64,000 bases of DNA from Eubacteriales bacterium (GTDB taxonomy: Bacteria; Bacillota; Clostridia; Oscillospirales; CAG-272), in the NCBI GenBank assembly GCA_045533115.1, contig JAZSHF010000005.1, positions 3,268 through 67,267 of the forward strand, written 5' to 3'. Numbering within the stretch: the stretch's first letter is position 1; each line of letters starts with the position of its first letter. Shown in pieces: positions 3,180 to 62,581 of the stretch. Under the pieces are notes generated by a model. The model was not told the DNA's origin. It searched no databases and saw only the letters and a list, made by a program, of their open reading frames with translations. The position numbers and the translations under genes are program-made.

Positions 3180-3248
3180 GTAGGTGCGATCATTGGTCGC
3201 CCGAAAAATTGCCTTAAGAATGGACGGGCGACCAATGGTCGCCCCTAC
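3180..3248. repeat. REP doublet (inverted pair of GTAG + GGGCGACCA hairpins)
   Basis: GTAGGTGCGATCATTGGTCGCCC at 3180-3202 and GGGCGACCAATGGTCGCCCCTAC at 3226-3248, separated by a 23-nt spacer. Confidence 0.85.
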
Positions 3249-3274: not shown

Positions 3275-4342
3275 TTAATTTACAACCCCGTTATTTACGT
3301 CATAAACCTTACAGGGTGTATCAATTTTATCGCAGGACGTGATAATTACCTGCTTATTTTCGATACCGGAGAGGAGATATTCGCGTCTTTTTTCGTCAAG
3401 CTCACTCAGAATATCGTCAAAGAGGAACACGGGATAGGTTCCGCTGATCTCGCGTGAAATTTCGCCCTCGGCGATCTTCATTGAAAGAGCAACCGATCTT
3501 TGCTGTCCCTGCGAGCCGAAGGACCGAGCCTCGCGGCCGTTCAGCATTATTTCTATATCGTCCTTATGAGTGCCGTAGAGTGTCGCGCCGAACCGAAGCT
3601 CACGGTCACGGTTTTCATTAAGCAGCGAAAGATATTCTTCCTTCGTTTTTCGCGTCTGATAGGTCAGCTTAACACTTTCTTTACCCGCCGTCATATCGTT
3701 TATTATCTCATCTGCCGAAACGCTCAGGCGCGATATATAAATATCACGCTTTTCCGAGATAATTTCAGCCTCGGCGGCAAGCTGCTCGGCGTAAACGTCG
3801 GAAAGCAGGAAAATATTATCATCTCGGCGGTCACGCGCCATTTTTATAAGCGCGTTTCGCTGTGAAAGAAACGCGTTATATCTCTGAAGCGACCTTAGAT
3901 ACTCGGTATCGGTCTGTGACAGGGCATTGTCTATAAATTTTCGTCTTACCGACGGGCCGTCCTTGACTATCGACAGATGCTCGGGGCAGAAAAGCACGGC
4001 GCGGAATTTTCCGACGACCTCGGATAGGCGCGTTATGGGAGCTCCGTTCAGCGAGCAAAACCTTTTTCCGAGCCGAGGCACGAAGCGGAAAAGCATTTCG
4101 TTTTCGCGCTTGCCGTCGAAAAAGGTCATTTCTATCTGTCCGTATTCAGCCCCGAAGCGTACAAGCTCGTTTTCGTGCACCGTACGGAAGGATCGCCCTC
4201 CCGCGAAGAAATACACTCCTTCGAGTATATTCGTCTTTCCCTGCCCATTTAAGCCGTTAAAAACGGTAACTGTGGGTGATATTTCAAGTGACGCCTCTTC
4301 GATATTACGAAAATTCTTATATACGAGCTTACGGCAGATCAT
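3275..4342 (-). CDS. recF: DNA replication/repair protein RecF
   Basis: 355-aa ORF with the Walker A motif GLNGQGKTN and the SMC-like signature FGSQGQQRS. Overlaps the dnaN stop by 4 nt. Confidence 0.96.
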   Translation of the reverse strand: MICRKLVYKNFRNIEEASLEISPTVTVFNGLNGQGKTNILEGVYFFAGGRSFRTVHENELVRFGAEYGQIEMTFFDGKRENEMLFRFVPRLGKRFCSLNGAPITRLSEVVGKFRAVLFCPEHLSIVKDGPSVRRKFIDNALSQTDTEYLRSLQRYNAFLSQRNALIKMARDRRDDNIFLLSDVYAEQLAAEAEIISEKRDIYISRLSVSADEIINDMTAGKESVKLTYQTRKTKEEYLSLLNENRDRELRFGATLYGTHKDDIEIMLNGREARSFGSQGQQRSVALSMKIAEGEISREISGTYPVFLFDDILSELDEKRREYLLSGIENKQVIITSCDKIDTPCKVYDVNNGVVN

Positions 4343-5481
4343 CCGTTAAGACGAACGGGGAGAATGAGGAGTAAGAACTTGCTCGGACTGTCCGACGCTT
4401 CCTCGACCGTCATACTCATAAGAGGAGAGGTAAGGCAGAGCTTAATTCTCTCGCAGTCACATACCTTGATAGCGTCGTATAGGAAGCGGCAGTTGAAGCC
4501 GATCTCAATGTCCTCACCCTCGTGGTGAACGGAAATTACATCGTTTACGCGTCCCGTGACCGACGAGGAAGCGATAGTAAGCTGTCCTTCCTTAACGGTG
4601 CAGATAACGGGGCTCGGAATCTGTCCCTGACGTCTTTCTTCAGTTACGAGAAGAGCTCTTTCAAGGGCAGAAAGGAGATCTGAGGTATCAAGTGTAACGA
4701 ATATCTTGGGCGATTTGGGGATAAAGCGGTCGTAATCAATATACTGCGCGTCAATTCTTCTCGTAAAAAGAACGAATCTTCCTATGAAGAATATGATGTG
4801 CTTACGGGCAACGTAAATTTCCATTTCCTTATCGCTGTCGGAAATGAATCTCATAAGCTCGGAAATACTCTTACCCGGGATAATTACGTCAAAAGCAAGC
4901 TCACTTGTACCGACGCTTTCCATCGGCTCGGTCTCGGTCACGACCGAAAGACGGCTTCCGTCGCAGGAAACTGCCGAAAGGACTCCGTCCTCGACCTTGA
5001 GGTCAAGACCGTTAAGCTCGGGCTTTACGGAATTAACGGCGATAGCGAACTGTGTTTTCTGAATAATTGCGCGAAGCGCGTCCTGACGGATTTTGAATCC
5101 ACGGTCGCCTCTTAGCTCCGGCAGATCGGGAAAATCGGACGCCGAGAGCGCATAAAGCTCAAATTCCGACGTTCCTGCCGATATCTTTGCCTTTAGGTTG
5201 CTTTCGTTGATTTCAATCGTAAGAAGTCCGTCGGGCATTGCCTTTATTATCTGAATAAATCTCTGGCAGTTGATAATTCCCGCGCCGCCTTCCTCGACGA
5301 TACAGGTAACGGTCGTTTTCATACCCTTTTCAAGGTCGTAAGCGGTAAGCTCACAGGTATCGTTTGATATTGTTTTAAGAAGGATACCCTCGATCGACGC
5401 GATCGTGTTTTTGTTTGACGCAAAGCCCACTGAGGGGATAGCCGCCTCGAGAATTTCGTTTTTCATTACCTTGATCTTCAT
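4339..5481 (-). CDS. dnaN: DNA polymerase III beta sliding clamp
   Basis: 380-aa ORF with the three-domain clamp length, directly downstream of dnaA. Confidence 0.95.
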   Translation of the reverse strand: MKIKVMKNEILEAAIPSVGFASNKNTIASIEGILLKTISNDTCELTAYDLEKGMKTTVTCIVEEGGAGIINCQRFIQIIKAMPDGLLTIEINESNLKAKISAGTSEFELYALSASDFPDLPELRGDRGFKIRQDALRAIIQKTQFAIAVNSVKPELNGLDLKVEDGVLSAVSCDGSRLSVVTETEPMESVGTSELAFDVIIPGKSISELMRFISDSDKEMEIYVARKHIIFFIGRFVLFTRRIDAQYIDYDRFIPKSPKIFVTLDTSDLLSALERALLVTEERRQGQIPSPVICTVKEGQLTIASSSVTGRVNDVISVHHEGEDIEIGFNCRFLYDAIKVCDCERIKLCLTSPLMSMTVEEASDSPSKFLLLILPVRLNG

Positions 5482-5605: not shown

Positions 5606-5800
5606 TGTGGATAAGCCTGAAAACCGTTATGCCAAACTGCTTTTCGGGGGGTAAATGTCGAAATTTGTCTGTGGATAAGCTGTTCGATTTTTTGAAAGTT
5701 GTCCACATGGGGATAATGTGTTGATAAGCTGGGGAAAAATGTTGATAATTTTTGAATTAAAATAGAATTATCTACATTATAGGTAATATTTGCCACGTTG
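5606..5800. promoter_or_regulatory. oriC-type DnaA-box cluster with AT-rich tract in the dnaA-dnaN spacer
   Basis: Perfect TGTGGATAA at 5606-5614 and 5670-5678. One-mismatch boxes at 5699-5707 (TTGTCCACA), 5719-5727 and 5740-5748 (TGTTGATAA), and 5768-5776 (TTATCTACA). AT-rich stretch at 5745-5790. Confidence 0.8.
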
Positions 5801-5804
5801 TCTT

Positions 5805-6237
5805 ACCTTCTCCTTAGGGAGAATGGGGGCCACCGAAGGTGGTGGATGAGGTGTTACATAGGTAATGAATTTTTTCTTAACTTTTCTTACTCGTGTAAGA
5901 AAAGTTACAAAAGAACCACGCCAAGGGGCAAACCGGTTTGAATTTTGCCTTCGCAAAATTCTGCACACGTTTTCCCCTTTGGAAACCCCTTTCCTTTAAG
6001 GAAGATTTGTGACGTTTCATCGTAGGGCGGGGGCTTGCTCCCGCCGTTGCAAAGAAAAGTAACATCGTTTTTGTGCGGGCGAGCAATGCTCGCCCCTACG
6101 AGAGAGTTTGGAATTTCATTGTAGGGGCGACCAATGGTCGCCCGTTTTCGTGGCGGTTTAATGCGTGCGACCATTGGTCGCACGTTTTAAGTAAAGTAAC
6201 ACCGCTTTGGAACGGCGGGAGCAAGCCCCCGCCCTAC
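5805..6237. repeat. Composite repeat block: left-arm half element, a 130-bp family-E copy, and five REP hairpins
   Basis: Left arm at 5805-5867. Family E at 5878-6004. REPs at 6022-6045 (GTAG GGCGGGGGCTTGCTCCCGCC), 6077-6099 (GGGCGAGCAATGCTCGCCC CTAC), 6121-6143 (GTAG GGGCGACCAATGGTCGCCC), 6165-6183 (a degenerate copy) and 6214-6237 (GGCGGGAGCAAGCCCCCGCC CTAC). Confidence 0.85.
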
Positions 6238-6256
6238 GAAATTGTGGCAAAGTTTA

Positions 6257-7657
6257 TCAACGCTTCTTTATCCTATTTATAAGGTCTTTGATTTCCGCGT
6301 CAAACGACGGCTCTGTATTCATACGCTTTTCGACTGTTTCGATGGAATTTATGATCGTCGTATGGTCGCGTCCGAAAACTCGTCCGATCGCGGGGAGTGA
6401 ACGGTCGGTCAGCTTTTTGATAATATAGACTGATATATGTCTTGCCGACGCGACGTTACTCGTTCTTTTTCTGCTTTTAATGTCCTCGACCGTAATACCG
6501 TATTTCTGCGAAACCATCGTAAGAATTTTATCTATCGTTACCGTTACGGGTTCAGATCCGACAACCTGGTCGGAAATACATCTTATTGCGAGGTCAACGG
6601 ACACCTCAGCACCGGTCAGTATACACTGCGCCGAAATTCTCTTGACCGCGCCCTCAAGCTGACGGACGTTATCGGTGAGGTTTTCCGCTATGTAGCTTAC
6701 GACCTCTTCGGGGAATGTCATACCGAGCTTTTCAACCTTTTTCTTGACGATAGCCGCACGAAGCTCGAAATCCGGCGGATTGATATCAGCAATAATTCCG
6801 CCCTCAAAGCGTGTGCGTAAGCGCTCCTCAAGCCGCTCGATATCGCGAGGTGGAAGGTCGGAAACGAGGATTATCTGCTTTCCGTTTTCATACAGGTGGT
6901 TGAAGGTATTAAAAAATTCCTCTTGAGTCGACGCTTTGCCTGCAATAAACTGAATATCGTCGATAAGAAGCACGTCCGCCTGACGGTACTTTTCGCGGAA
7001 TTCGTGCCGCAGGTCGCGGGAAAGGGAATCTATCATCTGATTTGTAAATTCCTCTCCCTTTACGTATACGACCTTATATGACGGAAAATTTTCCTTCAGT
7101 CGGTTAGCTATTGCGTAAAGCAGATGCGTTTTACCGAGACCCGACGGGCCGTATATAAAGAGGGGATTTGCCTGACGCGCAGGATGGTTTGAAACCGACT
7201 GTGCCGCCGCATGTGCAAACTTGTTCGATTCACCTACGACGAAGGAATCAAAGGTAAATTCGGAAAACGCCGCGGGAACCGCCGCACGGTTAAGCACCTT
7301 ATTTTCTCCGACCGTAGAATAAATTTCGGTATTGACTTCACTCTTTTCCGCAGCCGCAATTATCTTTTCCGTCGTTTCCTTTTCGTTCTGAAGCGAACGA
7401 ACGGAAACAGTTACCTCAAATCCAATGACCTCAAAAAGAGCTTCCTTTATCTTGGTAAGATATCTGTTATGAATAATATCGCGCTTGAAATCTGACTTCG
7501 CCATAAAAACGGCGGTATCGTTTGTCAGAACCGTTAATTTAAGGTCTGAAAACCAGAGCTTCATAACGATATCGTCGTATCCGTTGATATCCTGAAGCTT
7601 CTTTTTCACGAGCGTCCATATCTCGTCAAATTGGTTGTTGTCGTTTATGTTTATCAT
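6257..7657 (-). CDS. dnaA: Chromosomal replication initiator DnaA
   Basis: 466-aa ORF with the AAA+ Walker A motif GPSGLGKTHL and a C-terminal DnaA-box-binding domain (RHISVYIIKKLT...IGRVFGRDHTT). Confidence 0.98.
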   Translation of the reverse strand: MININDNNQFDEIWTLVKKKLQDINGYDDIVMKLWFSDLKLTVLTNDTAVFMAKSDFKRDIIHNRYLTKIKEALFEVIGFEVTVSVRSLQNEKETTEKIIAAAEKSEVNTEIYSTVGENKVLNRAAVPAAFSEFTFDSFVVGESNKFAHAAAQSVSNHPARQANPLFIYGPSGLGKTHLLYAIANRLKENFPSYKVVYVKGEEFTNQMIDSLSRDLRHEFREKYRQADVLLIDDIQFIAGKASTQEEFFNTFNHLYENGKQIILVSDLPPRDIERLEERLRTRFEGGIIADINPPDFELRAAIVKKKVEKLGMTFPEEVVSYIAENLTDNVRQLEGAVKRISAQCILTGAEVSVDLAIRCISDQVVGSEPVTVTIDKILTMVSQKYGITVEDIKSRKRTSNVASARHISVYIIKKLTDRSLPAIGRVFGRDHTTIINSIETVEKRMNTEPSFDAEIKDLINRIKKR

Positions 7658-7796
7658 AGCTTAACTCACTAATGAATATAATTATAGTTATATATATTAT
7701 ATTATATATAGGGAAAAATTTCAAGGTTTTAGCATCGCAAGGACTATTTTTTAACAAAATGTTTACAAAATAAAGAGATATGCGGAGCACTTAATT

Positions 7797-8287
7797 ACCT
7801 TCTCCAGTGGGAGAAGGTGTCAACCGAAGGTTGACGGATGAGGTGTTTCATAGGTAATGCAACTGACTTGATATAATAATATTTTAATTGTACAATACAC
7901 CTCATCCGACTTCGTTCGGCTTCGCCTCTCTCAGCCACCTTCTCCCGTTGGAGAAGGTAAAACAACGCGGCGAAGCATCGGAACGTCCTCTTGCCTTCCC
8001 CTCAGGGGAAGGTGTCGGTCAAAGGGTTCCTGAGGTGTAGGTTGCGAAGCAACCGTTATACCTTCTCCAGCGGGAGAAGGGGGACCACCGAAGGTGGTGG
8101 ATGAGGTGTAGGTTGCGAAGCAACCGCTATACCTTCTCCAGCGGGAGAAGGGGGACCGCGATAGCGGTGGATGAGGTGTAGGTTGCGGAGCAACCGCATC
8201 AAAAACAATGTAACATCACACCCGAACACCTCATCCGACTTCGTTCGGCTTCGCCTCACTCAGCCACCTTCTCCCGTTGGAGAAGGT
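7797..8287. repeat. Largest mosaic repeat block: one full element followed by an element with its internal left-arm module tandemly duplicated
   Basis: Full element at 7797-7967. The second block at 7990-8287 contains units of about 70 bp starting at 8032, 8103 and 8173. Confidence 0.9.
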
Positions 8288-8311
8288 ATGACAATGCGTC
8301 GAAGCTTCCTT

Positions 8312-10009: not shown

Positions 10010-10154
10010 AATACACCTCCTTGTTATTAAATTTTAATAATTTCGTATGTAAAGTAAATAAAAATACTTATACAAAATATATTATAATAAAAATATATTG
10101 AAATGTCAAGTGCGATAAGAAATGTTTTTTAGTTTCTTTCATTATTATATATGG

Positions 10155-10402
10155 CAAGCATCGGAACGTCCTCTTGCCTTCCCCTTGGGGAAGGTGTCGG
10201 GCAAAGGGTTCCTGAGGTGTAGGTTGCGTAGCAACCGTTATACCTTCTCCAGCGGGAGAAGGGGGACCGCGATAGCGGTGGATGAGGTGTTTCATAGGTA
10301 ATGCAACTGACTTGATATAATAATATTTTAATTGTACAATACACCTCATCCGACTTCGTTCGGCTTCGCCTCACTCAGCCACCTTCTCCCACTGGAGAAG
10401 GT
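10155..10402. repeat. Mosaic hairpin repeat, near-identical to parts of 7797-8287
   Basis: Shares the flank GCAAGCATCGGAACGTCCTCTTGCC, H1/H2/box modules and the core TTCATAGGTAATGCAACTGACTTGATATAATAATATTTTAATTGTACAAT. Confidence 0.9.
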
Positions 10403-10466
10403 AGTACATCGTAGCGAAGTGTCGAACCCCCTCAAAAAAATTTTTGAAAAAATTTTGAAAAACCTA

Positions 10467-10956: not shown

Positions 10957-11541
10957 ATGAAATTCGTTTGCACAGTTTGCGGTTACGTTCACGAGGGAGA
11001 AGCTGCTCCCGAAAAGTGCCCGGTATGTAAGGTTCCCGCGTCCAAGTTTAAGGTAATGGAAGAGAATGCCGCTCTTGCCGCTGAGCACGAGTACGGCATC
11101 TACGCTAAGACCGTTAAGAATAACCCCGATATCTCCGAGGAAGACAAGAAGTACATCTACGATCAGCTTATGGCTAACTTTATGGGCGAATGCTCCGAGG
11201 TCGGTATGTACCTCTGCATGGCACGCATCGCACACCGCGAGGGCTACCCCGAGATCGGTCTCTACTGGGAAAAGGCAGCCTTTGAAGAGGCTGAGCACGC
11301 AGCTAAGTTCGCAGAGCTTCTCGGTGAGGATCTCGAGCCGAATATGAAGGCTACGACCAAGGATAACCTTGCATGGCGTGTTGACTGTGAGTACGGCGCA
11401 ACCGCAGGTAAGTTTGACCTTGCTAAGTGCGCAAAGAAGAACAATCTCGACGCTATCCATGACACCGTTCACGAAATGGCTCGCGATGAAGCAAGACACG
11501 GTAAGGCACTCGAGGGACTTCTTAACAGATATTTCAAGTAA
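10957..11541 (+). CDS. rbr: Reverse rubrerythrin (N-terminal rubredoxin-like CxxC...CxxC followed by a ferritin-like diiron domain)
   Basis: 194-aa ORF with CTVCG...CPVC at the N-terminus and ExxH diiron motifs ([17 protein letters not shown]). Confidence 0.9.
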
Positions 11542-13028: not shown

Positions 13029-13253
13029 ATGAACGCAGAGGTCGAAAAAAGGATCGGCAAAAACATTCGGGAATTGCGCGAACGCGCGAAAATGACGCAG
13101 GAGGAGCTGGCGGCGAAGCTGCAAATCCGCGGTTGCGATATTACCCGCAGCGCCGTTGCAAAGATCGAGGTCGGTCAGCGTCACCTTTACCCCGATGAGA
13201 TCGTTCTGATAAAAGAAATCCTTTCCGTCAGCTATGACGAAATATTTGATTAA
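13029..13253 (+). CDS. XRE-family helix-turn-helix transcriptional regulator
   Basis: HTH signature IRELRERAKMTQEELAAKL......S..AKIE.G. I chose the start at 13029 (RBS AAAAGAGG). The track's 12837 start would overlap the lipoprotein gene and the promoter region. Confidence 0.85.
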   Translation: MNAEVEKRIGKNIRELRERAKMTQEELAAKLQIRGCDITRSAVAKIEVGQRHLYPDEIVLIKEILSVSYDEIFD

Positions 13254-13273
13254 AAATAAAATTGGCGATTATA

Positions 13274-13768
13274 ATGGAAAATGAATTACCGAAGAGGAAA
13301 CAGAATCGTTTACGAAGGTATGATTACAGCTCTTGCGGCGCATATTTTATTACGATATGCACGTTTGAAAGGCGCAATTATTTTTGGGATAACCTTGTAG
13401 GGGCGACCATTGGTCGCCCGAGTGACGTTGCGTTGTCTCAATACGGAAAAATTGTTGATGAGGCGATAATCGGTATATCCTCAATATACCCTGCGTTGTC
13501 TATCGAAAAATACGTGATCATGCCTAATCACGTTCATTTGTTATTAAGAATACGTGCCGACGAATTCGGGCGACCAATGGTCGCCCCTACAATTTCGCGG
13601 ATTGTAAATCAGTTTAAGGGATACGTTGCGAAACGAACAGAAAAGAACATCTGGCAAAAATCCTTTCACGACCACGTTATCCGTAATTATGAGGATTACG
13701 AAGAACATATAAAATACATCCACGAAAACCCAGCTCAGTGGTACTTCGACGAGTTATATTCAGAATAA
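13274..13768 (+). CDS. REP-associated tyrosine transposase-like protein (IS200/Y1 HUH superfamily)
   Basis: HUH motif in IMPNHVHLLL (HVH codons at 13529-13537) and a C-terminal Tyr helix, YIHENPAQW. About 165 aa, with no IS ends. The start could be ATG 13274 or TTG 13262. Confidence 0.8.
   Translation: MENELPKRKQNRLRRYDYSSCGAYFITICTFERRNYFWDNLVGATIGRPSDVALSQYGKIVDEAIIGISSIYPALSIEKYVIMPNHVHLLLRIRADEFGRPMVAPTISRIVNQFKGYVAKRTEKNIWQKSFHDHVIRNYEDYEEHIKYIHENPAQWYFDELYSE
13397..13420 (+). repeat. REP unit inside the RAYT-like CDS (GTAG + GGGCGACCATTGGTCGCCC)
   Basis: GTAGGGGCGACCATTGGTCGCCCG, in frame and encoding VGATIGRP. The same unit occurs at 19740-19762; 6121-6143 carries the same stem with the opposite loop (AA). 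Confidence 0.9.
13567..13590 (-). repeat. Inverted REP unit inside the RAYT-like CDS
   Basis: CGGGCGACCAATGGTCGCCCCTAC, in frame and encoding GRPMVAPT. It is the exact reverse complement of 13397-13420 and matches the intergenic copy at 3226-3248. Confidence 0.9.
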
Positions 13769-13797
13769 AAAGCAGAGCCGAACGGCTCTGCTTTTTA
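13767..13797. terminator. Bidirectional intrinsic terminator
   Basis: AGCAGAGCCG-aa-CGGCTCTGCT flanked by AAAA and TTTTT. Lies between convergent genes. Confidence 0.8.
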
Positions 13798-15198: not shown

Positions 15199-15250
15199 TA
15201 TATTATCCTCAATTTATTATATACTTATAAAATCTTTGGGACGTTGTCTT

Positions 15251-15662
15251 ACCTTCTCCTGAGGGAGAAGGCGTCATTCGCTACGCGAATGACGGATGAG
15301 GTGTCGAGGGGTTCCCCGAAAACGAGCTTGTCGAGTTTTTGGGGGTTCCTGAGGTGTCTAAAAAGGGAACATACTCCTCATCCACCACTACGAGCGAACC
15401 CCAAACGCTCATTTCATTCGCATTTGGGAACCCCTCGCGTGGTCCCCCTTCTCCCACAGGAGAAGGTATTTAGTAACATCTTTTTGTCACGGCGGGAGCA
15501 GGCCCCCGCCCTACTACAAACAACGTGTCGAAGTATCAGGGCGTTGTCTTGCCTTCCCCTTGGGGAAGGTGTCAACCGAAGGTTGACGGATGAGGTGTCT
15601 AAAAGGGAACATACTCCTCATCCACCACCTTCGGTGGTCCCCCTTCTCCCTCAGGAGAAGGT
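15251..15662. repeat. Two mosaic hairpin repeats plus one REP, between two genes of the decarboxylase cluster
   Basis: Elements at 15251-15467 and 15551-15662 share the centre CTAAAAAGGGAACATACTCCTCATCCACCAC. REP GGCGGGAGCAGGCCCCCGCC CTAC at 15491-15514. Confidence 0.85.
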
Positions 15663-15701
15663 ATTGGGTAACACCGTTTTTATGCGGGAGTGGAAATCCT
15701 C

Positions 15702-19350: not shown

Positions 19351-19426
19351 TGGCGCGCCCTAGAGGATTCGAACCTCTGACCTACCGGTTCGTAGCCGGG
19401 CACTCTATCCGCTGAGCTAAGGGCGC
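19351..19426 (-). tRNA. tRNA-Arg (anticodon ACG), CCA encoded
   Basis: The reverse complement GCGCCCTTAGCTCAGCGGATAGAGTGCCCGGCTACGAACCGGTAGGTCAGAGGTTCGAATCCTCTAGGGCGCGCCA folds as a cloverleaf with anticodon loop CTACGAA. Confidence 0.93.
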
Positions 19427-19471: not shown

Positions 19472-19543
19472 GTGATTTTGAAAAATAATTAAATTTGTTT
19501 TTGACGGGAGGGGAGACGCAGAGAATTATCGGAACGCCGTTAT

Positions 19544-19707
19544 ACCTTCTCCGGCGGGAGAAGGTGGCGGCGAAGCCGACGGATGAGGTGTCAAAGAGTA
19601 TATCAAAGCGAATGTAATGAGCTTTGACAATTTCTTTGCTCTCTGAATTGGGAACCTACTCCTCATCCACCACCTTCGGTGGTCCCCCTTCTCCCTCAGG
19701 AGAAGGT
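19544..19707. repeat. Mosaic hairpin repeat
   Basis: ACCTTCTCCGGCGGGAGAAGGT GGCGGCGAAGCCGAC GGATGAGGTGT ... CTCCTCATCC ACCACCTTCGGTGGT CCCCCTTCTCCCTCAGGAGAAGGT. Confidence 0.85.
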
Positions 19708-19739
19708 AAGATATTGCGGCGAAGCGTTCAAACGTTCTC

Positions 19740-19809
19740 GTAGGGGCGACCATTGGTCGCCCGCTCGTTAGTGATGCAATTTTTGCGGGCGAGCAATGCT
19801 CGCCCCTAC
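19740..19809. repeat. REP doublet with two different stems
   Basis: GTAGGGGCGACCATTGGTCGCCC at 19740-19762 and GGGCGAGCAATGCTCGCCCCTAC at 19787-19809. Confidence 0.85.
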
Positions 19810-19853
19810 AAAACCGTGTCAAAACATTCAAACGCTCCCGTATGGGCAAAACG

Positions 19854-20306
19854 TCATTTATTTCCCCTTATTTTCTTAAAAAACTCACTCAAAATCTCTT
19901 TGCATTCCTTTTCCATCACACCGCCGACGATCTCGGGGCGGGAGGAATAAGGATACGATGCAAGATTGATAAGACTTCCGAACGAGCCCTCGCGGTTATC
20001 GAAGGCGCCGAAAACCACCTTTTCAACGCGCGAATTTATAATTGCGCCCGCACACATCGGGCAGGGCTCGAGGGTAACGTAGAGAGTACAGCCCGTCAGG
20101 TGCCAGCCGCCGAGCTTTTGGCAGGCAAGCCGTATTGCGCTCGTTTCGGCGTGGGCGGTCGCATCAAAGGTCGTTTCGCGCTCGTTATGAGCGGAAGCTA
20201 TGACCTCACCGTTTCGGACGATAACGGCACCTATCGGCACCTCGCTCTTCTCTGCCGCCTTTTTCGCTTCCTCGAGCGCGAGGAGCATATATTTTTCGTC
20301 GGACAT
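19854..20306 (-). CDS. tadA: tRNA adenosine(34) deaminase
   Basis: 150-aa ORF with the CDA zinc motifs HAE and PCPMCAGA. Confidence 0.92.
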   Translation of the reverse strand: MSDEKYMLLALEEAKKAAEKSEVPIGAVIVRNGEVIASAHNERETTFDATAHAETSAIRLACQKLGGWHLTGCTLYVTLEPCPMCAGAIINSRVEKVVFGAFDNREGSFGSLINLASYPYSSRPEIVGGVMEKECKEILSEFFKKIRGNK

Positions 20307-20374
20307 AGTGTTACCTCTGTGGGGGAAAAAAGAATGGAGACCTCTTACTTTAGAAGGGTTTGCCGCATTGTTAG

Positions 20375-20552
20375 CCTTCCCTTTGGGGAAGGGGGACCGC
20401 AGGCGTTGCGCCTGCGGTGGATGAGGTTAGCTGTCGAAGACAGCGTTACATATCAAATGTAACATTACTTGAAAAAACGGTTGCTTCGCAACCTAACCTC
20501 ATCCGACTTCGTTCGGCGTTGCCTCACTTAGCCACCTTCCCCAAGGGGAAGG
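20375..20552. repeat. Mosaic hairpin repeat (CCTTCCCC-type)
   Basis: Left arm with GGATGAGGT TAG CTGTCGAAGACAGCG. Centre TTACATATCAAATGTAACATTAC. Right arm with GGTTGCTTCGCAACC TAACCTCATCC ... CCTTCCCCAAGGGGAAGG. Confidence 0.85.
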
Positions 20553-24267: not shown

Positions 24268-24436
24268 GGGAGGGGAACCCCCTCCCCTATTAAATGTAGA
24301 TTGAACGTTGTCTACCTTCTCCAGTGGGAGAAGGTGTCAACCGAAGGTTGACGGATGAGGTGTCTAAAAAGTGAACTTACTCCTCATCCACCACAGGCGT
24401 TCCGCCTGCGGTCCCCCTTCTCCCTCAGGAGAAGGT
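24268..24436. repeat. Degenerate REP followed by a mosaic hairpin repeat
   Basis: GGGAGGGGAACCCCCTCCCCTAT at 24268-24290. The element at 24314-24436 has GTCAACCGAAGGTTGAC and the centre CTAAAAAGTGAACTTACTC. Confidence 0.85.
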
Positions 24437-25694: not shown

Positions 25695-25927
25695 CCTTCC
25701 CCTTTGGGAAGGTGTCAACCGATAGGTTGACGGATGAGGTTAGCCGTCGCAGACGGCGTTACCAAAGGAAAGTAACATTGTTTTTGTGCGGGAGGGGAGC
25801 CCCTCCCCTACGGAGATAGAGGGGACGCTGTTAGCCTTCCCCTTGGGGAAGGTGTCGGTCGAAGACCGACGGATGAGGTGTAGGCTGCAACGCCGCCATA
25901 CGGAGGTGTCACGAACGTTGTCTTCCT
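25695..25927. repeat. Two left-arm modules with one REP between them
   Basis: First left arm at 25695-25760, then the connector AAAGTAACATTGTTTTTGT, then REP GGGAGGGGAGCCCCTCCC CTAC at 25790-25811. Second left arm at 25835-25900. Confidence 0.85.
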
Positions 25928-27037: not shown

Positions 27038-27169
27038 AGTATTTTCTCTTTCGGGACTATATATTTATAGTTATACAGTATAATTATAATAGAAAACAAA
27101 AATTTTTTCAACAGTTTTGTGAAATATTATGTTTGTTTACAAAATTGGATTTTTGCGGTACGTTGTTTT

Positions 27170-27520
27170 ACCTTCTCCAGCGGGAGAAGGTGTCAACCGA
27201 AGGTTGACGGATGAGGTGTTCCACGGGAAATGCATTTGATTTGACGTAATCAAATTTTAATTGTACAATACACCTCATCCGACTTCGTTCGGCTTCGCCT
27301 CTCTCAGCCACCTTCTCCCGCTGGAGAAGGTAAAAAAACGCCCCGAAGCTTCGCCACGTCGTTAGCCTTCCCCTTGGGGGAGGTGGCGAGTGAAACGAGG
27401 CGGATGAGGTTAGGATGCGAAGCATCCGTCACAAAAATAATGTTACTTAATTAATACAACGCCGTCTGCGACGGCTAACCTCATCCGACGCCTTCGGCGC
27501 CACCTTCCCCAAGGGGAAGG
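27170..27520. repeat. Two adjacent complete mosaic hairpin repeats
   Basis: Element 1 at 27170-27333 (ACCTTCTCC type). Element 2 at 27365-27520 (CCTTCCCC type) has the centre CACAAAAATAATGTTACTTAATTAATAC. Confidence 0.9.
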
Positions 27521-27552
27521 CAAGGGTGTGGCGTAGCTTTCTGATCTCCCTA

Positions 27553-29308: not shown

Positions 29309-29467
29309 AAAAAGACCCTCGCAGAACGAGGGTCATCTTTTCTTCAAATTAACTCTCATCTGCCCGGATTTGGCACCTTTTTGGTTTATTTTGGGCGTTT
29401 ATCACGCTTAAACCAAATGGTTGTCGGGCTTCACAGGGCCGGTCCCTCCGCCACTCTTGATAAGAAC
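29309..29467 (-). promoter_or_regulatory. SAM-I (S-box) riboswitch with terminator, in the metK leader
   Basis: The minus strand reads TTCTTATCAAGAGTGGCGGAGGGACCGGCCCTGTGAAGCCCGACAACC...GGTGCCAAATCCGGGCAGATGAGAG. The terminator GACCCTCGTTCTGCGAGGGTC followed by TTTTT comes next. Confidence 0.9.
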
Positions 29468-29559: not shown

Positions 29560-29750
29560 CCTCCCCCTTGGGGAAGGTGTCGGTCGAAGACCGACGGATG
29601 AGGTGTAGCCGCGAAGCGGCGTTACCAAAGCAAAGTAACATTGTTTTTGTAACGGATGCTTCGCATCCTAACCTCATCCGACTTCGTTCGGCTTCGCCTC
29701 TCTCAGCCACCTTCCCCAAGGGGAAGGCTAGATGCGACCGATGGTCGCCA
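29560..29750. repeat. Complete mosaic hairpin repeat plus a degenerate REP
   Basis: Left arm, then GTAG CCGCGAAGCGGC, then the connector GTTACCAAAGCAAAGTAACATTGTTTTTGTAAC, then GGATGCTTCGCATCC TAACCTCATCC and the right arm. GCGACCGATGGTCGC at 29734-29748. Confidence 0.9.
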
Positions 29751-45302: not shown

Positions 45303-45417
45303 CCTTCTCCGGCGGGAGAAGGTGACGCCGAAGGCGTCGGATGAGGTGTAGGTTGCGAAGCAACCGTATGCCAAAACAAAGTAACATCATTTTTGTGCGG
45401 GCGACCATCGGTCGCCC
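45303..45417. repeat. Left arm, GTAG hairpin, connector and REP (half mosaic)
   Basis: CCTTCTCCGGCGGGAGAAGG TGACGCCGAAGGCGTC GGATGAGGT GTAGGTTGCGAAGCAACC ... AAAGTAACATCATTTTTGT GC GGGCGACCATCGGTCGCCC. Confidence 0.85.
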
Positions 45418-60190: not shown

Positions 60191-60553
60191 TTAACTTTTC
60201 TTACTTGTGCAGTTTTTCCCACTTTTCTTTGCTCGTGCAAAGACAAGTTTCAAAAGAAAGTGCGCCAAGGGGCAAACCGCAAAAATTTGCGAAAGCAAAT
60301 TTTTACACGTTTTCCCCTTTGGAATCCCCTTTCGTTCGCCCGTGTCATTCTGAGCGGAGCGCCGCCAGACCCATTCGACCGCGCTCAGGGTGACGGGCGG
60401 CGCGAAGTCGAACGGCGAAGCCGCGCCGTAGGCGGAATCTCGGGCGAGAACCACGTTGTCTAGCCTTCCCCTTGGGGAAGGTGTCGGTCGAAGACCGACG
60501 GATGAGGTGTAGCCGCCGTAGACGGCGTTGTAGGGCGGGGGCTTGCTCCCGCC
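60191..60553. repeat. Composite: family-E copy, a GTCATTCTGAGCGGAGCG-type segment, a mosaic left arm and a REP
   Basis: Family E at 60191-60334. Left arm at 60464-60529. REP GTAG GGCGGGGGCTTGCTCCCGCC at 60530-60553, identical to 6022-6045. Confidence 0.8.
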
Positions 60554-62494: not shown

Positions 62495-62581
62495 GCGGGT
62501 ATGGCGGAATTGGCAGACGCGCTAGATACAGGTTCTAGTGACTTCACGGTCATACAGGTTCAAGTCCTGCTACCCGCACCA
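62495..62581 (+). tRNA. tRNA-Leu (anticodon CAG), class II with long variable arm, CCA encoded
   Basis: GCGGGTATGGCGGAATTGGCAGACGCGCTAGATACAGGTTCTAGTGACTTCACGGTCATACAGGTTCAAGTCCTGCTACCCGCACCA. The anticodon stem is CTAGA/TCTAG and the loop is TACAGGT. Confidence 0.85.

Follow-up and report, generated by a model that had tools for sequence, protein, structure and literature searches.

A nested mosaic of GTAG-tagged REP hairpins beside dnaA, and a RAYT gene with in-frame REPs, in DNA from an uncultured gut Clostridia lineage

We analyzed a 64-kb stretch of DNA from a Clostridia bacterium, which we refer to as the window. The results indicated that the roughly 220 bp at positions 6020 to 6239 are very probably a BIME-like mosaic of GTAG-tagged REP sequences, which is located 18 nt downstream of dnaA and occupies a part of the spacer that is dispensable for the replication origin. 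The general class is already known: GTAG REPs come in several stem families per genome, and they are served by RAYT enzymes. To our knowledge, nearly all work on REP/RAYT systems has been done in Proteobacteria, and the catalogues that exist for other groups mainly cover Cyanobacteria and Bacteroidetes.

From left to right, the cluster contained B(+), A'(-), A(+), a decayed copy of A, and B(-). The B(+) unit (GTAGGGCGGGGGCTTGCTCCCGCC, positions 6022 to 6045) was carried by the left arm (6020 to 6054, plus strand) of a 35-nt inverted repeat; its GTAG was located at 6022 to 6025 and was followed by the hairpin GGCGGGGGC-TT-GCTCCCGCC (6026 to 6045), which contained one G.T pair. A 31-nt linker connected B(+) to A', and it included the sequence AAAGTAACATCGTTTTTGTGC (6056 to 6076, plus strand), which abutted the A' hairpin. 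The same sequence abutted hairpins with other stems at 25769 to 25789 and 45378 to 45398. The A'(-) unit (GTAG plus GGGCGAGCATTGCTCGCCC, 6077 to 6099, minus strand) and the A(+) unit (GTAG plus GGGCGACCAATGGTCGCCC, 6121 to 6143, plus strand) formed a tail-to-tail doublet with a 21-nt spacer (6100 to 6120), and the two units were complementary at 88% over 24 nt. The decayed A-type palindrome (CGTGCGACCATTGGTCGCACG, 6164 to 6184) had a GTAG on neither side and was separated by a second linker from B(-), whose unit (6214 to 6237, minus strand) was located in the right arm of the inverted repeat (6205 to 6239). The two B arms matched at 97% and enclosed the A'/A pair. The neighboring genes, dnaA (6257 to 7657) and dnaN (4339 to 5481), were both on the minus strand. 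Thus, the nested arrangement that a preliminary description had reported between 6022 and 6237, within the dnaN-dnaA spacer, was confirmed in full: all of the units were recovered at those positions, both genes were verified, DnaA boxes were present in the spacer, and the B inverted repeat enclosed the A'/A pair. A 91% identical copy of the A'/A doublet with its flanks (6052 to 6144) was found at positions 11287 to 11379 of a related locus, L001, where it was located in another genomic context, 3' of a different gene. B-type dimers in other genomes had interiors that were free of other REPs. Together with the solitary doublet in L001, these dimers were consistent with an A doublet that is nested in a B doublet.

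A chance origin of the GTAG-hairpin units was excluded. The patterns of families A/A', B, and C produced no matches in 100 dinucleotide shuffles. We also examined the hairpin foot in a way that did not presuppose GTAG; all perfect GC-rich hairpins with a stem of at least 8 and a loop of at most 5 were collected, and the 4-mer at the foot was tabulated. GTAG was the most common 4-mer, both in the window (8 of 31 hairpins) and in 1.18 Mb of related loci (101 of 206 hairpins, compared to an expectation of about 0.9 at a background of 0.2% per position). The preliminary description had staked its proposal on an association between GTAG and the hairpin foot, and the association turned out to be strong. 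Its second proposal, that the stems vary by compensatory changes under a constant GTAG, was borne out by the covariation in a set of 144 units. Stem pair 10:18 was AT in 72 units, GC in 26, CG in 10, and TA in 3, and stem pair 11:17 was CG in 48 units, AT in 25, GC in 24, and TA in 11, while GTAG and the first two G:C pairs did not change in any unit. G.T pairs recurred at fixed stem positions, which fits strand-specific folding of the GTAG strand. Each unit was predicted to fold as single-stranded DNA with its GTAG unpaired, and the predicted geometry of family A was a GTAG, an 8-bp palindrome, and a 3-nt loop, for a total of 23 nt. The whole cluster was predicted to fold as single-stranded DNA into a nested hairpin of -89.7 kcal/mol (z = -16).

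The window contained about 16 REP units, 14 outside and 2 inside a RAYT gene. The GTAG-plus-hairpin units occupied eight intergenic sites, one of which was the dnaA cluster, and GTAG was located directly at the hairpin foot in 13 of the 16 units; the three that lacked it were those at 6164, 45395, and 24268, the last of which had ATAG. Family A was represented by five intact units with the 19-nt hairpin GGGCGACCA(A/T)TGGTCGCCC, the center of which was a single base and not the TT/AA previously given. The two units of family A' differed from A by one flip of a C:G pair to G:C. There were four units of family B, all with the same G.T pair, and a single unit of family C plus one ATAG-tagged variant. 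Among the three decayed A-type units, the one at 3180 retained its GTAG, and those at 6164 and 45395 did not.

Outside of the dnaA cluster, a head-to-head A dimer was located downstream of recF (3180 to 3248), with a degenerate unit at 3180 to 3202(+) and an intact unit at 3226 to 3248(-). A second head-to-head dimer, A(+) at 19740 to 19762 and A'(-) at 19787 to 19809, was located downstream of a deaminase gene, and these two dimers, like the A'/A doublet (6077 to 6143), were in inverted orientation. Lone B units were found between oadB-like and oadA-like genes (15491 to 15514, minus strand) and between convergent genes (60530 to 60553, plus strand), where the unit was fused to half of a composite element that is described below. 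The C unit (GTAG plus GGGAGGGGCTCCCCTCCC) was located at 25790 to 25811 on the minus strand, as previously described, and was preceded by the shared linker; the C-like variant, GGGAGGGG-AAC-CCCCTCCC with the ATAG tag, was located at 24268 to 24290 on the minus strand. The shared linker also preceded the decayed A-type palindrome CGGGCGACCATCGGTCGCCCG (45395 to 45417), which had no GTAG. All 14 of the units outside the RAYT gene were intergenic in a window that was 83% coding; the preliminary description had named palindromes that are equally frequent inside genes as a result that would argue against it. Most of the units were just 3' of a stop codon, and both orientations relative to the upstream gene occurred. 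Searches of Rfam with the REPs yielded no match at either threshold.

The preliminary description had counted at least five stem versions built on the same plan. Four families were clean, but the fifth proved to be part of a separate composite repeat: the GTTGCGAAGCAAC-type hairpin that follows GGATGAGGT was the optional third hairpin (HP3) of this repeat. The complete layout was a first hairpin (HP1, CCTTCYCC..GGRGAAGG), a second hairpin with a variable perfect stem and a GNA triloop (HP2), GGATGAGGT, and [G/T]TAG plus HP3. Of the HP3 copies, 7 were tagged with GTAG and 9 with TTAG, and HP3 was missing from 22 of the 38 boxes examined. The GGATGAGG box occurred 39 times in the 64 kb, compared to 1.4 expected occurrences. 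The composite repeats, which were usually arranged as inverted pairs of about 130 to 180 bp, were present in nearly all intergenic regions of the window, were far more abundant than the REPs, and were restricted to close relatives. Rfam searches yielded no match at either threshold for this repeat as well. RNAalifold recovered only hairpin 1, as hairpin 2 was misregistered in the alignment, and the covariation was judged by inspection. Since the REPs were interleaved with the composite repeat and a linker was common to both, the mobile unit may be larger than a REP doublet. It is possible that the REPs and this undescribed, lineage-restricted element form one modular system.

A single RAYT/TnpA-REP-like Y1 HuH gene was found in the window (13274 to 13768, plus strand). 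The 164-residue product contained an HVH motif (residues 86 to 88) and a YIHENP motif (residues 148 to 153), both of which were invariant in 32 homologues. The match to NF047646, the model for REP-associated tyrosine transposases, had an E value of 1.7e-19 and a score of 70.2 bits, which was below the curated cut-off of 80, and the match to the Pfam family Y1_Tnp (PF01797) scored 21.8 bits, below the cut-off of 23. These subthreshold scores suggested that the protein is a divergent relative whose membership is based on its motifs, its fold, and its association with REPs. The only sequence match in the PDB was 4ER8 (profile search, E = 2.4e-9, 26% identity), which is the structure of E. coli TnpA-REP with a bound REP hairpin (PMC3479197). 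An AlphaFold model of the protein (pLDDT 78, pTM 0.74) had 4ER8 as its best PDB fold match, followed by IS200/IS605 TnpA structures. In the E. coli enzyme, GTAG is contacted by W94, Q95, E100, H101, and R104 (PMC6006769). These residues aligned to W127, Q128, D133, H134, and R137 of the window protein, which were invariant in the homologues. The sequence comparisons thus showed an intact RAYT gene with conserved catalytic and GTAG-contact residues. The earlier proposal that the REP families are read by the logic of E. coli TnpA-REP was supported by the GTAG foot, the stem covariation, the match to 4ER8, and the contact residues.

The RAYT gene carried two family-A REPs in its own coding sequence, one on either side of the HuH motif, which the preliminary description had overlooked. 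Both were in frame. The REP at 13397 to 13419 (plus strand) encoded VGATIGRP in a loop with a pLDDT below 50 that was predicted to be disordered, and the REP at 13568 to 13590 (minus strand) encoded GRPMVAPT in a loop that connects the HuH strand to the helix after it. The two loops are missing from E. coli TnpA-REP. No REPs flanked the gene.

The mechanism that we favor would be as follows. The REPs would be nonautonomous elements, and their GTAG strand would fold into a short GC-rich hairpin that leaves GTAG unpaired at the 5' foot. The tetranucleotide and the hairpin would be read by a Y1 HuH nuclease of the RAYT/TnpA-REP type, kin to the IS200/IS605 transposases, and this enzyme would cut and rejoin single-stranded DNA. 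In this reading, the cluster beside dnaA is composed of an inverted B doublet with outward-facing GTAGs, which encloses an inverted A'/A doublet with inward-facing GTAGs and one decayed A. Other RAYTs that have been studied bind the hairpin as folded single-stranded DNA and require GTAG for cutting (PMC8266576, PMC3479197); in the REPSm/TnpASm system of Stenotrophomonas maltophilia, GTAG is needed for cleavage, and mismatches in the stem impair it (Corneloup et al. 2021, PMC8266576). By analogy with the biochemistry of the E. coli, S. maltophilia, and Marinomonas systems, we infer that the window RAYT may cleave or mobilize these REPs and that the inverted doublet may be the unit that moves.

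A genome scan yielded 80 RAYT homologues, nearly all of which were from Clostridia metagenome-assembled genomes (Oscillospiraceae, Acutalibacteraceae, Christensenellales, and others); the closest was from Clostridia bacterium RGIG4652, from the rectum of a roe deer. Exactly two internal GTAG REPs, inverted and located at the same two sites, were present in 61 of the 80 homologues. Eleven others had one internal REP, four had three, and four had none. No internal GTAG REP was found in the second RAYT gene on locus L123, which, together with the count of 61 among 80, indicated that the in-frame pair is not universal. The internal stems were alike within a gene but widely different between genes, and the peptides that they encode varied freely (VGATIGRP, VGGDVLDA, VGEGSPLP, and others). 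In contrast to the peptides, the codons were fixed. Valine in the internal REPs was GTA in 64 of 64 cases, compared to 28% elsewhere in these genes; glycine was GGG in 64 of 64 cases, compared to 15%; and proline was CCT in 72 of 72 cases, compared to 23%. Fixed codons despite freely varying peptides showed that it is the nucleic acid, and not the protein, that is constrained. In addition, flanking REPs matched the internal stems of the gene in 25 of 43 loci, whereas 2000 shuffles gave 5.1 such loci on average and never more than 12, and the in-gene pair diversified together with the dispersed REP family. A tentative reading, which we regard as possible rather than likely, is that in a large clade of Clostridial RAYTs, an inverted pair of cognate REPs is an obligatory part of the gene that is selected as DNA and not as protein.

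No cognate RAYT for family B or C was found in the window. We set out the prediction that family B has its own RAYT, with B-type REPs at the two internal positions seen in the other genes, and scanned metagenomes for B-type inverted pairs 130 to 160 nt apart. Such pairs were found in 56 stretches, about 52 of which were inside RAYT homologues that were 27 to 49% identical to the window RAYT. Complete ORFs with HuH between the two REPs and Y..NP after them accounted for 38 of the stretches, and 28 of these 38 carried the exact B stem of the window, encoding VGRGLAPA and AGASPRPT. Among the 80 loci, C-like stems (GGGAGGGG arms, with a 3-nt loop as opposed to 2 nt in the window C) were found in the RAYT genes at L070 and L077. 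A and A' stems occurred together in one RAYT gene (L026), which suggested that one enzyme may serve both families. The preliminary description had remarked that a single RAYT was visible for several stem families. This was accurate for the window, but the apparent shortage was an effect of the window edge, as RAYT lineages with B stems and C-like stems were found elsewhere. Judging from these lineages, the "missing" transposases are probably outside the window, and families B and C are probably served by further RAYT paralogues there.

The cluster shares the dnaA-dnaN spacer with four DnaA boxes (5606 to 5614, 5670 to 5678, 5719 to 5727, and 5740 to 5748) that mark a putative oriC at 5606 to 5748. 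The GC skew of the window was flat and neither confirmed nor located an origin, so the oriC assignment is based on the boxes. This setting, as well as the very strong cruciform potential of the cluster, could be taken to mean that the hairpins work in the origin itself or in the control of dnaA, for instance as an unwinding element or a site for DnaA loading. For comparison, we took the spacers of four relatives with DnaA proteins that were 90 to 95% identical to that of the window (L084, L086, L087, and L088; L001 and L081 ended short of the orthologous site). From about 240 nt past the dnaA stop codon onward, the spacer was conserved in all four, DnaA boxes included. The first 240 nt or so differed: L084 had a full composite element and, by eye, an apparent decayed REP; L087 and L088 had half of a composite element; and L086 had a different mix of repeats, with only B(+) in common, at the identical site. 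Relatives with nearly the same DnaA therefore lacked the cluster or had other repeats in its place while keeping the box block, and the RAYT gene and seven further intergenic sites unrelated to this one contained units identical to those of the cluster. We consider a role in the origin or in dnaA control to be very unlikely. A variable segment next to a conserved box region indicated instead that the cluster marks an insertion hot spot in the 3' flank of dnaA and is not part of the origin. The presence/absence polymorphism among related strains that the preliminary description had proposed to look for was seen at this locus in the four relatives; recombination or deletion could also have produced it.

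Three other explanations were weighed against a mosaic of mobile REPs. The units might be kept mainly as RNA elements, such as 3' stabilizers of mRNA or terminators, with only an incidental link to RAYT. REPs have been proposed to be RNA elements (PMC3733652), nearly all of the copies were just 3' of stop codons, G.T pairs recurred at fixed stem positions, and A(+) was followed by GTTTTCG and was scored as terminator-like. Yet the sense strand of dnaA had no convincing terminator, only a weak match being found on the opposite strand, the units pointed either way with respect to the upstream gene, and a role in RNA alone leaves unexplained why the stems track the internal copies of the RAYT gene. 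This explanation seems improbable to us, although less so than a role in the origin. An RNA role would be compatible with mobility. The 97% identical, 35-nt inverted repeat at the ends of the block would also suit a single 220-bp MITE that was moved by a conventional transposase, with the B arms as its terminal inverted repeats. We give this little credence, about as little as the origin role: no flanking direct repeat was found, L086 shared the left B arm at this site but had another interior, B occurred as lone units at 15491 and 60530 and elsewhere as dimers that enclosed no other REPs, and the A'/A doublet was found on its own in L001. Finally, the identical 23-nt units inside the RAYT coding sequence could mean that the dispersed palindromes are debris of RAYT pseudogenes and not independent elements. 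No RAYT sequence was found beside the dispersed units in translated and nucleotide searches, and the stretch of 148 nt that separates the internal REPs had no second copy in the window; this explanation is the least credible of all. The mosaic of GTAG-tagged REPs thus remained the reading that we prefer.

The window REPs closely resemble the GTAG REP superfamily, in which a genome has several families, each with its own REPtron (PMC3733652; see also PMC6006769). Features in common are the unpaired 5' GTAG, GC-rich stems of 8 to 9 bp with loops of 1 to 3 nt, complementary stem changes between subfamilies, head-to-head and tail-to-tail dimers, clusters, and an intergenic location that is mostly 3' of ORFs (PMC3733652). 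The window differs from that superfamily in its host, an uncultured gut Clostridia, as Firmicutes/Clostridia are absent from that paper, and in that its REPs share a linker with, and fuse to, a second composite repeat. Among the supplementary data of PMC3733652, none of the window stems was found, so these stems are not assigned to one of the 24 GTAG families that the paper names. The likeness to E. coli REPs and BIMEs lies in the clusters, where REPs alternate in a mosaic and are joined by conserved linkers, and in the combination of a Y1 HuH enzyme with a GTAG-tagged hairpin. However, the E. coli REPs differ in being imperfect palindromes that contain a bulge, and the E. coli RAYT gene is flanked by REPs and has none inside, whereas the window gene has them inside. 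The predicted family A unit is like REPSm of S. maltophilia (23 nt, with GTAG and a perfect 8-bp palindrome around a 3-nt loop; PMC8266576), but TnpASm belongs to group 3/subclass 2.5, unlike the window RAYT. REPINs, which consist of two inverted REPs with a short spacer (Bertels and Rainey 2011, PMC3116915), resemble the A'/A doublet, which recurred in L001. REPINs are copied as a unit; in the window, the likeness consists of one doublet recurrence between genomes, and singlets were also common.

The closest match for the window RAYT was subclass 2.4 of TnpA-REP (Quentin et al. 2018, PMC6006769), which corresponds to the Group 4 RAYTs of Bertels et al. 2017 (PMC5581495). In-frame REPs within the tnpA-REP gene were reported in 2018 as unique to this subclass, which has been described mainly from Cyanobacteria and Bacteroidetes (PMC6006769). 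The window RAYT shares the NH[IFV]H, WQ, and Y..NP motifs of the subclass (as PNHVH, IWQ, and YIHENP) and has its in-frame REPs in surface loops. Like the subclass 2.4 REPs, those of the window begin with GTAGGGGCG... and have three G:C pairs at the base of the stem; GTAGGGGCG... occurs 68 times in the REP list of the PMC6006769 supplement, for example as GTAGGGGCGACC... in Chloroflexus. On the other hand, the window Y motif has an E for an N (YIHENP and not YIxNNP), the protein has 164 residues compared to a subclass median of 194, and its REPs are at fixed sites, one before and one after HuH, and not "generally between HuH and Y". The window gene also differs from the subclass in that its REPs are internal only. 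The Clostridia RAYTs in Bertels et al. were from Group 1 only, and we found no description of such REPs in Firmicutes/Clostridia in the REP/RAYT papers that we consulted. Our results go somewhat beyond these papers in the fixed two-site architecture, the codon evidence for selection at the DNA level, and the stem-specific RAYT lineages.

Together with 130-odd related loci, the window shows that uncultured Clostridia of the gut and rumen possess a rich and diversified GTAG-REP/RAYT system, in which RAYT homologues number in the thousands. These repeats, which fill the intergenic regions, will cause breaks and misjoins in metagenome assemblies. They also cause annotation errors in the form of false N-terminal extensions and spurious ORFs; examples were the N-terminal extension of homologue P0091, which was derived from a REP, and the spurious ORFs at 5905 to 6183 and 19842 to 20462 of the window. 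Moreover, the REPs render the dnaA-dnaN spacer, which is often used to define oriC, partly variable. Since each RAYT gene states its cognate stem, REP families can be assigned to RAYT paralogues from their sequences, and the in-frame pair offers a natural test of how specificity is matched between a domesticated transposase and its hairpin population. If the pair is indeed an obligatory part of the gene, then the REP population would have its master copy, its specificity template, or an autoregulatory site within the gene, which would account for the continued match of RAYT lineages with stem families.

To the right of the putative oriC (6257-41886), nearly all genes were on the minus strand. 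A fork that set out from the dnaA-dnaN spacer would therefore run into them head-on, an arrangement that is unusual for Clostridia. GC skew was flat. Because relatives carry dnaN-recF-gyrB-gyrA...RAYT in a single line, the gene order seen here reflects either a rearrangement or a misassembly at repeats.

The gene for the REP-associated transposase (RAYT), about 20 nt upstream of it and its terminator formed a cassette, and the copies in the window and in its closest relative shared 91% identity (window 13244-13795; related loci L001, 9974-10522, and L081, 10001-10507). The neighborhood of the cassette differed between the two genomes. An HTH_3 gene adjoined RAYT in both, and the two HTH_3 genes were just 32% identical. 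The cassette has thus been relocated or replaced. Two other loci with RAYT homologues stood out: in L103 (about 700-1370), several REPs were inserted in tandem and in frame into a RAYT ORF, on both sides of its HuH motif, and L091 (2510-3823) was a classical REPtron, in which RAYT lay between flanking arrays of B-type REPs with a 79-nt periodicity.

Every B copy in the window (hairpins at 6026-6045, 6214-6233, 15491-15510 and 60534-60553) had a G.T pair at a fixed stem position, as did 32 of the 112 RAYT-internal 23-nt units (in L003, L006, L008 and other loci). Since a G.T pair in the GTAG strand becomes an A.C mismatch on the complement, these hairpins fold perfectly in the GTAG strand only.

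The GC-rich repeats also created spurious ORFs of 90-200 aa, at 5905-6183 (-), 10068-10349 (-) and 19842-20462 (+); one spurious 92-aa ORF passed through the REP cluster. An annotation error of the same kind was found in the homologous protein P0091, whose N-terminal extension (...VGATSGRP...) was derived from an upstream REP. The window also contained a SAM riboswitch (29353-29466, -, 65.7 bits) and two tRNA genes, at 19354-19426 (-) and 62495-62578 (+). The A/A' dimer (19740-19809) lay between the first tRNA gene and a tadA-like deaminase gene.

A composite repeat, separate from the REPs, was very abundant: the 64-kb window contained about 17 complete elements and another 5 that were half elements (for example, at 7786-7969, 8049-8298, 10231-10413, 15240-15673, 19533-19718 and 27159-27532). 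Its modules were ordered as HP1 (CCTTCYCC..GGRGAAGG), HP2 (GNA triloops on at least eight distinct perfect stems), then the GGATGAGGT box and, optionally, [G/T]TAG plus HP3. Most copies formed inverted pairs of 130-180 bp. An Rfam search with the repeat gave no match, and its distribution was restricted to close relatives of the window.

The linker AAAGTAACATYRTTTTTGTGC matched five times in the window, against 0.08 expected. It directly abutted REP hairpins with three distinct stems, A', C and decayed A (6056-6076, 25769-25789 and 45378-45398), and lay at the centers of two composite elements (27429-27449 and 29632-29652). This shared placement suggests that modules are exchanged between the REPs and the composite repeat.
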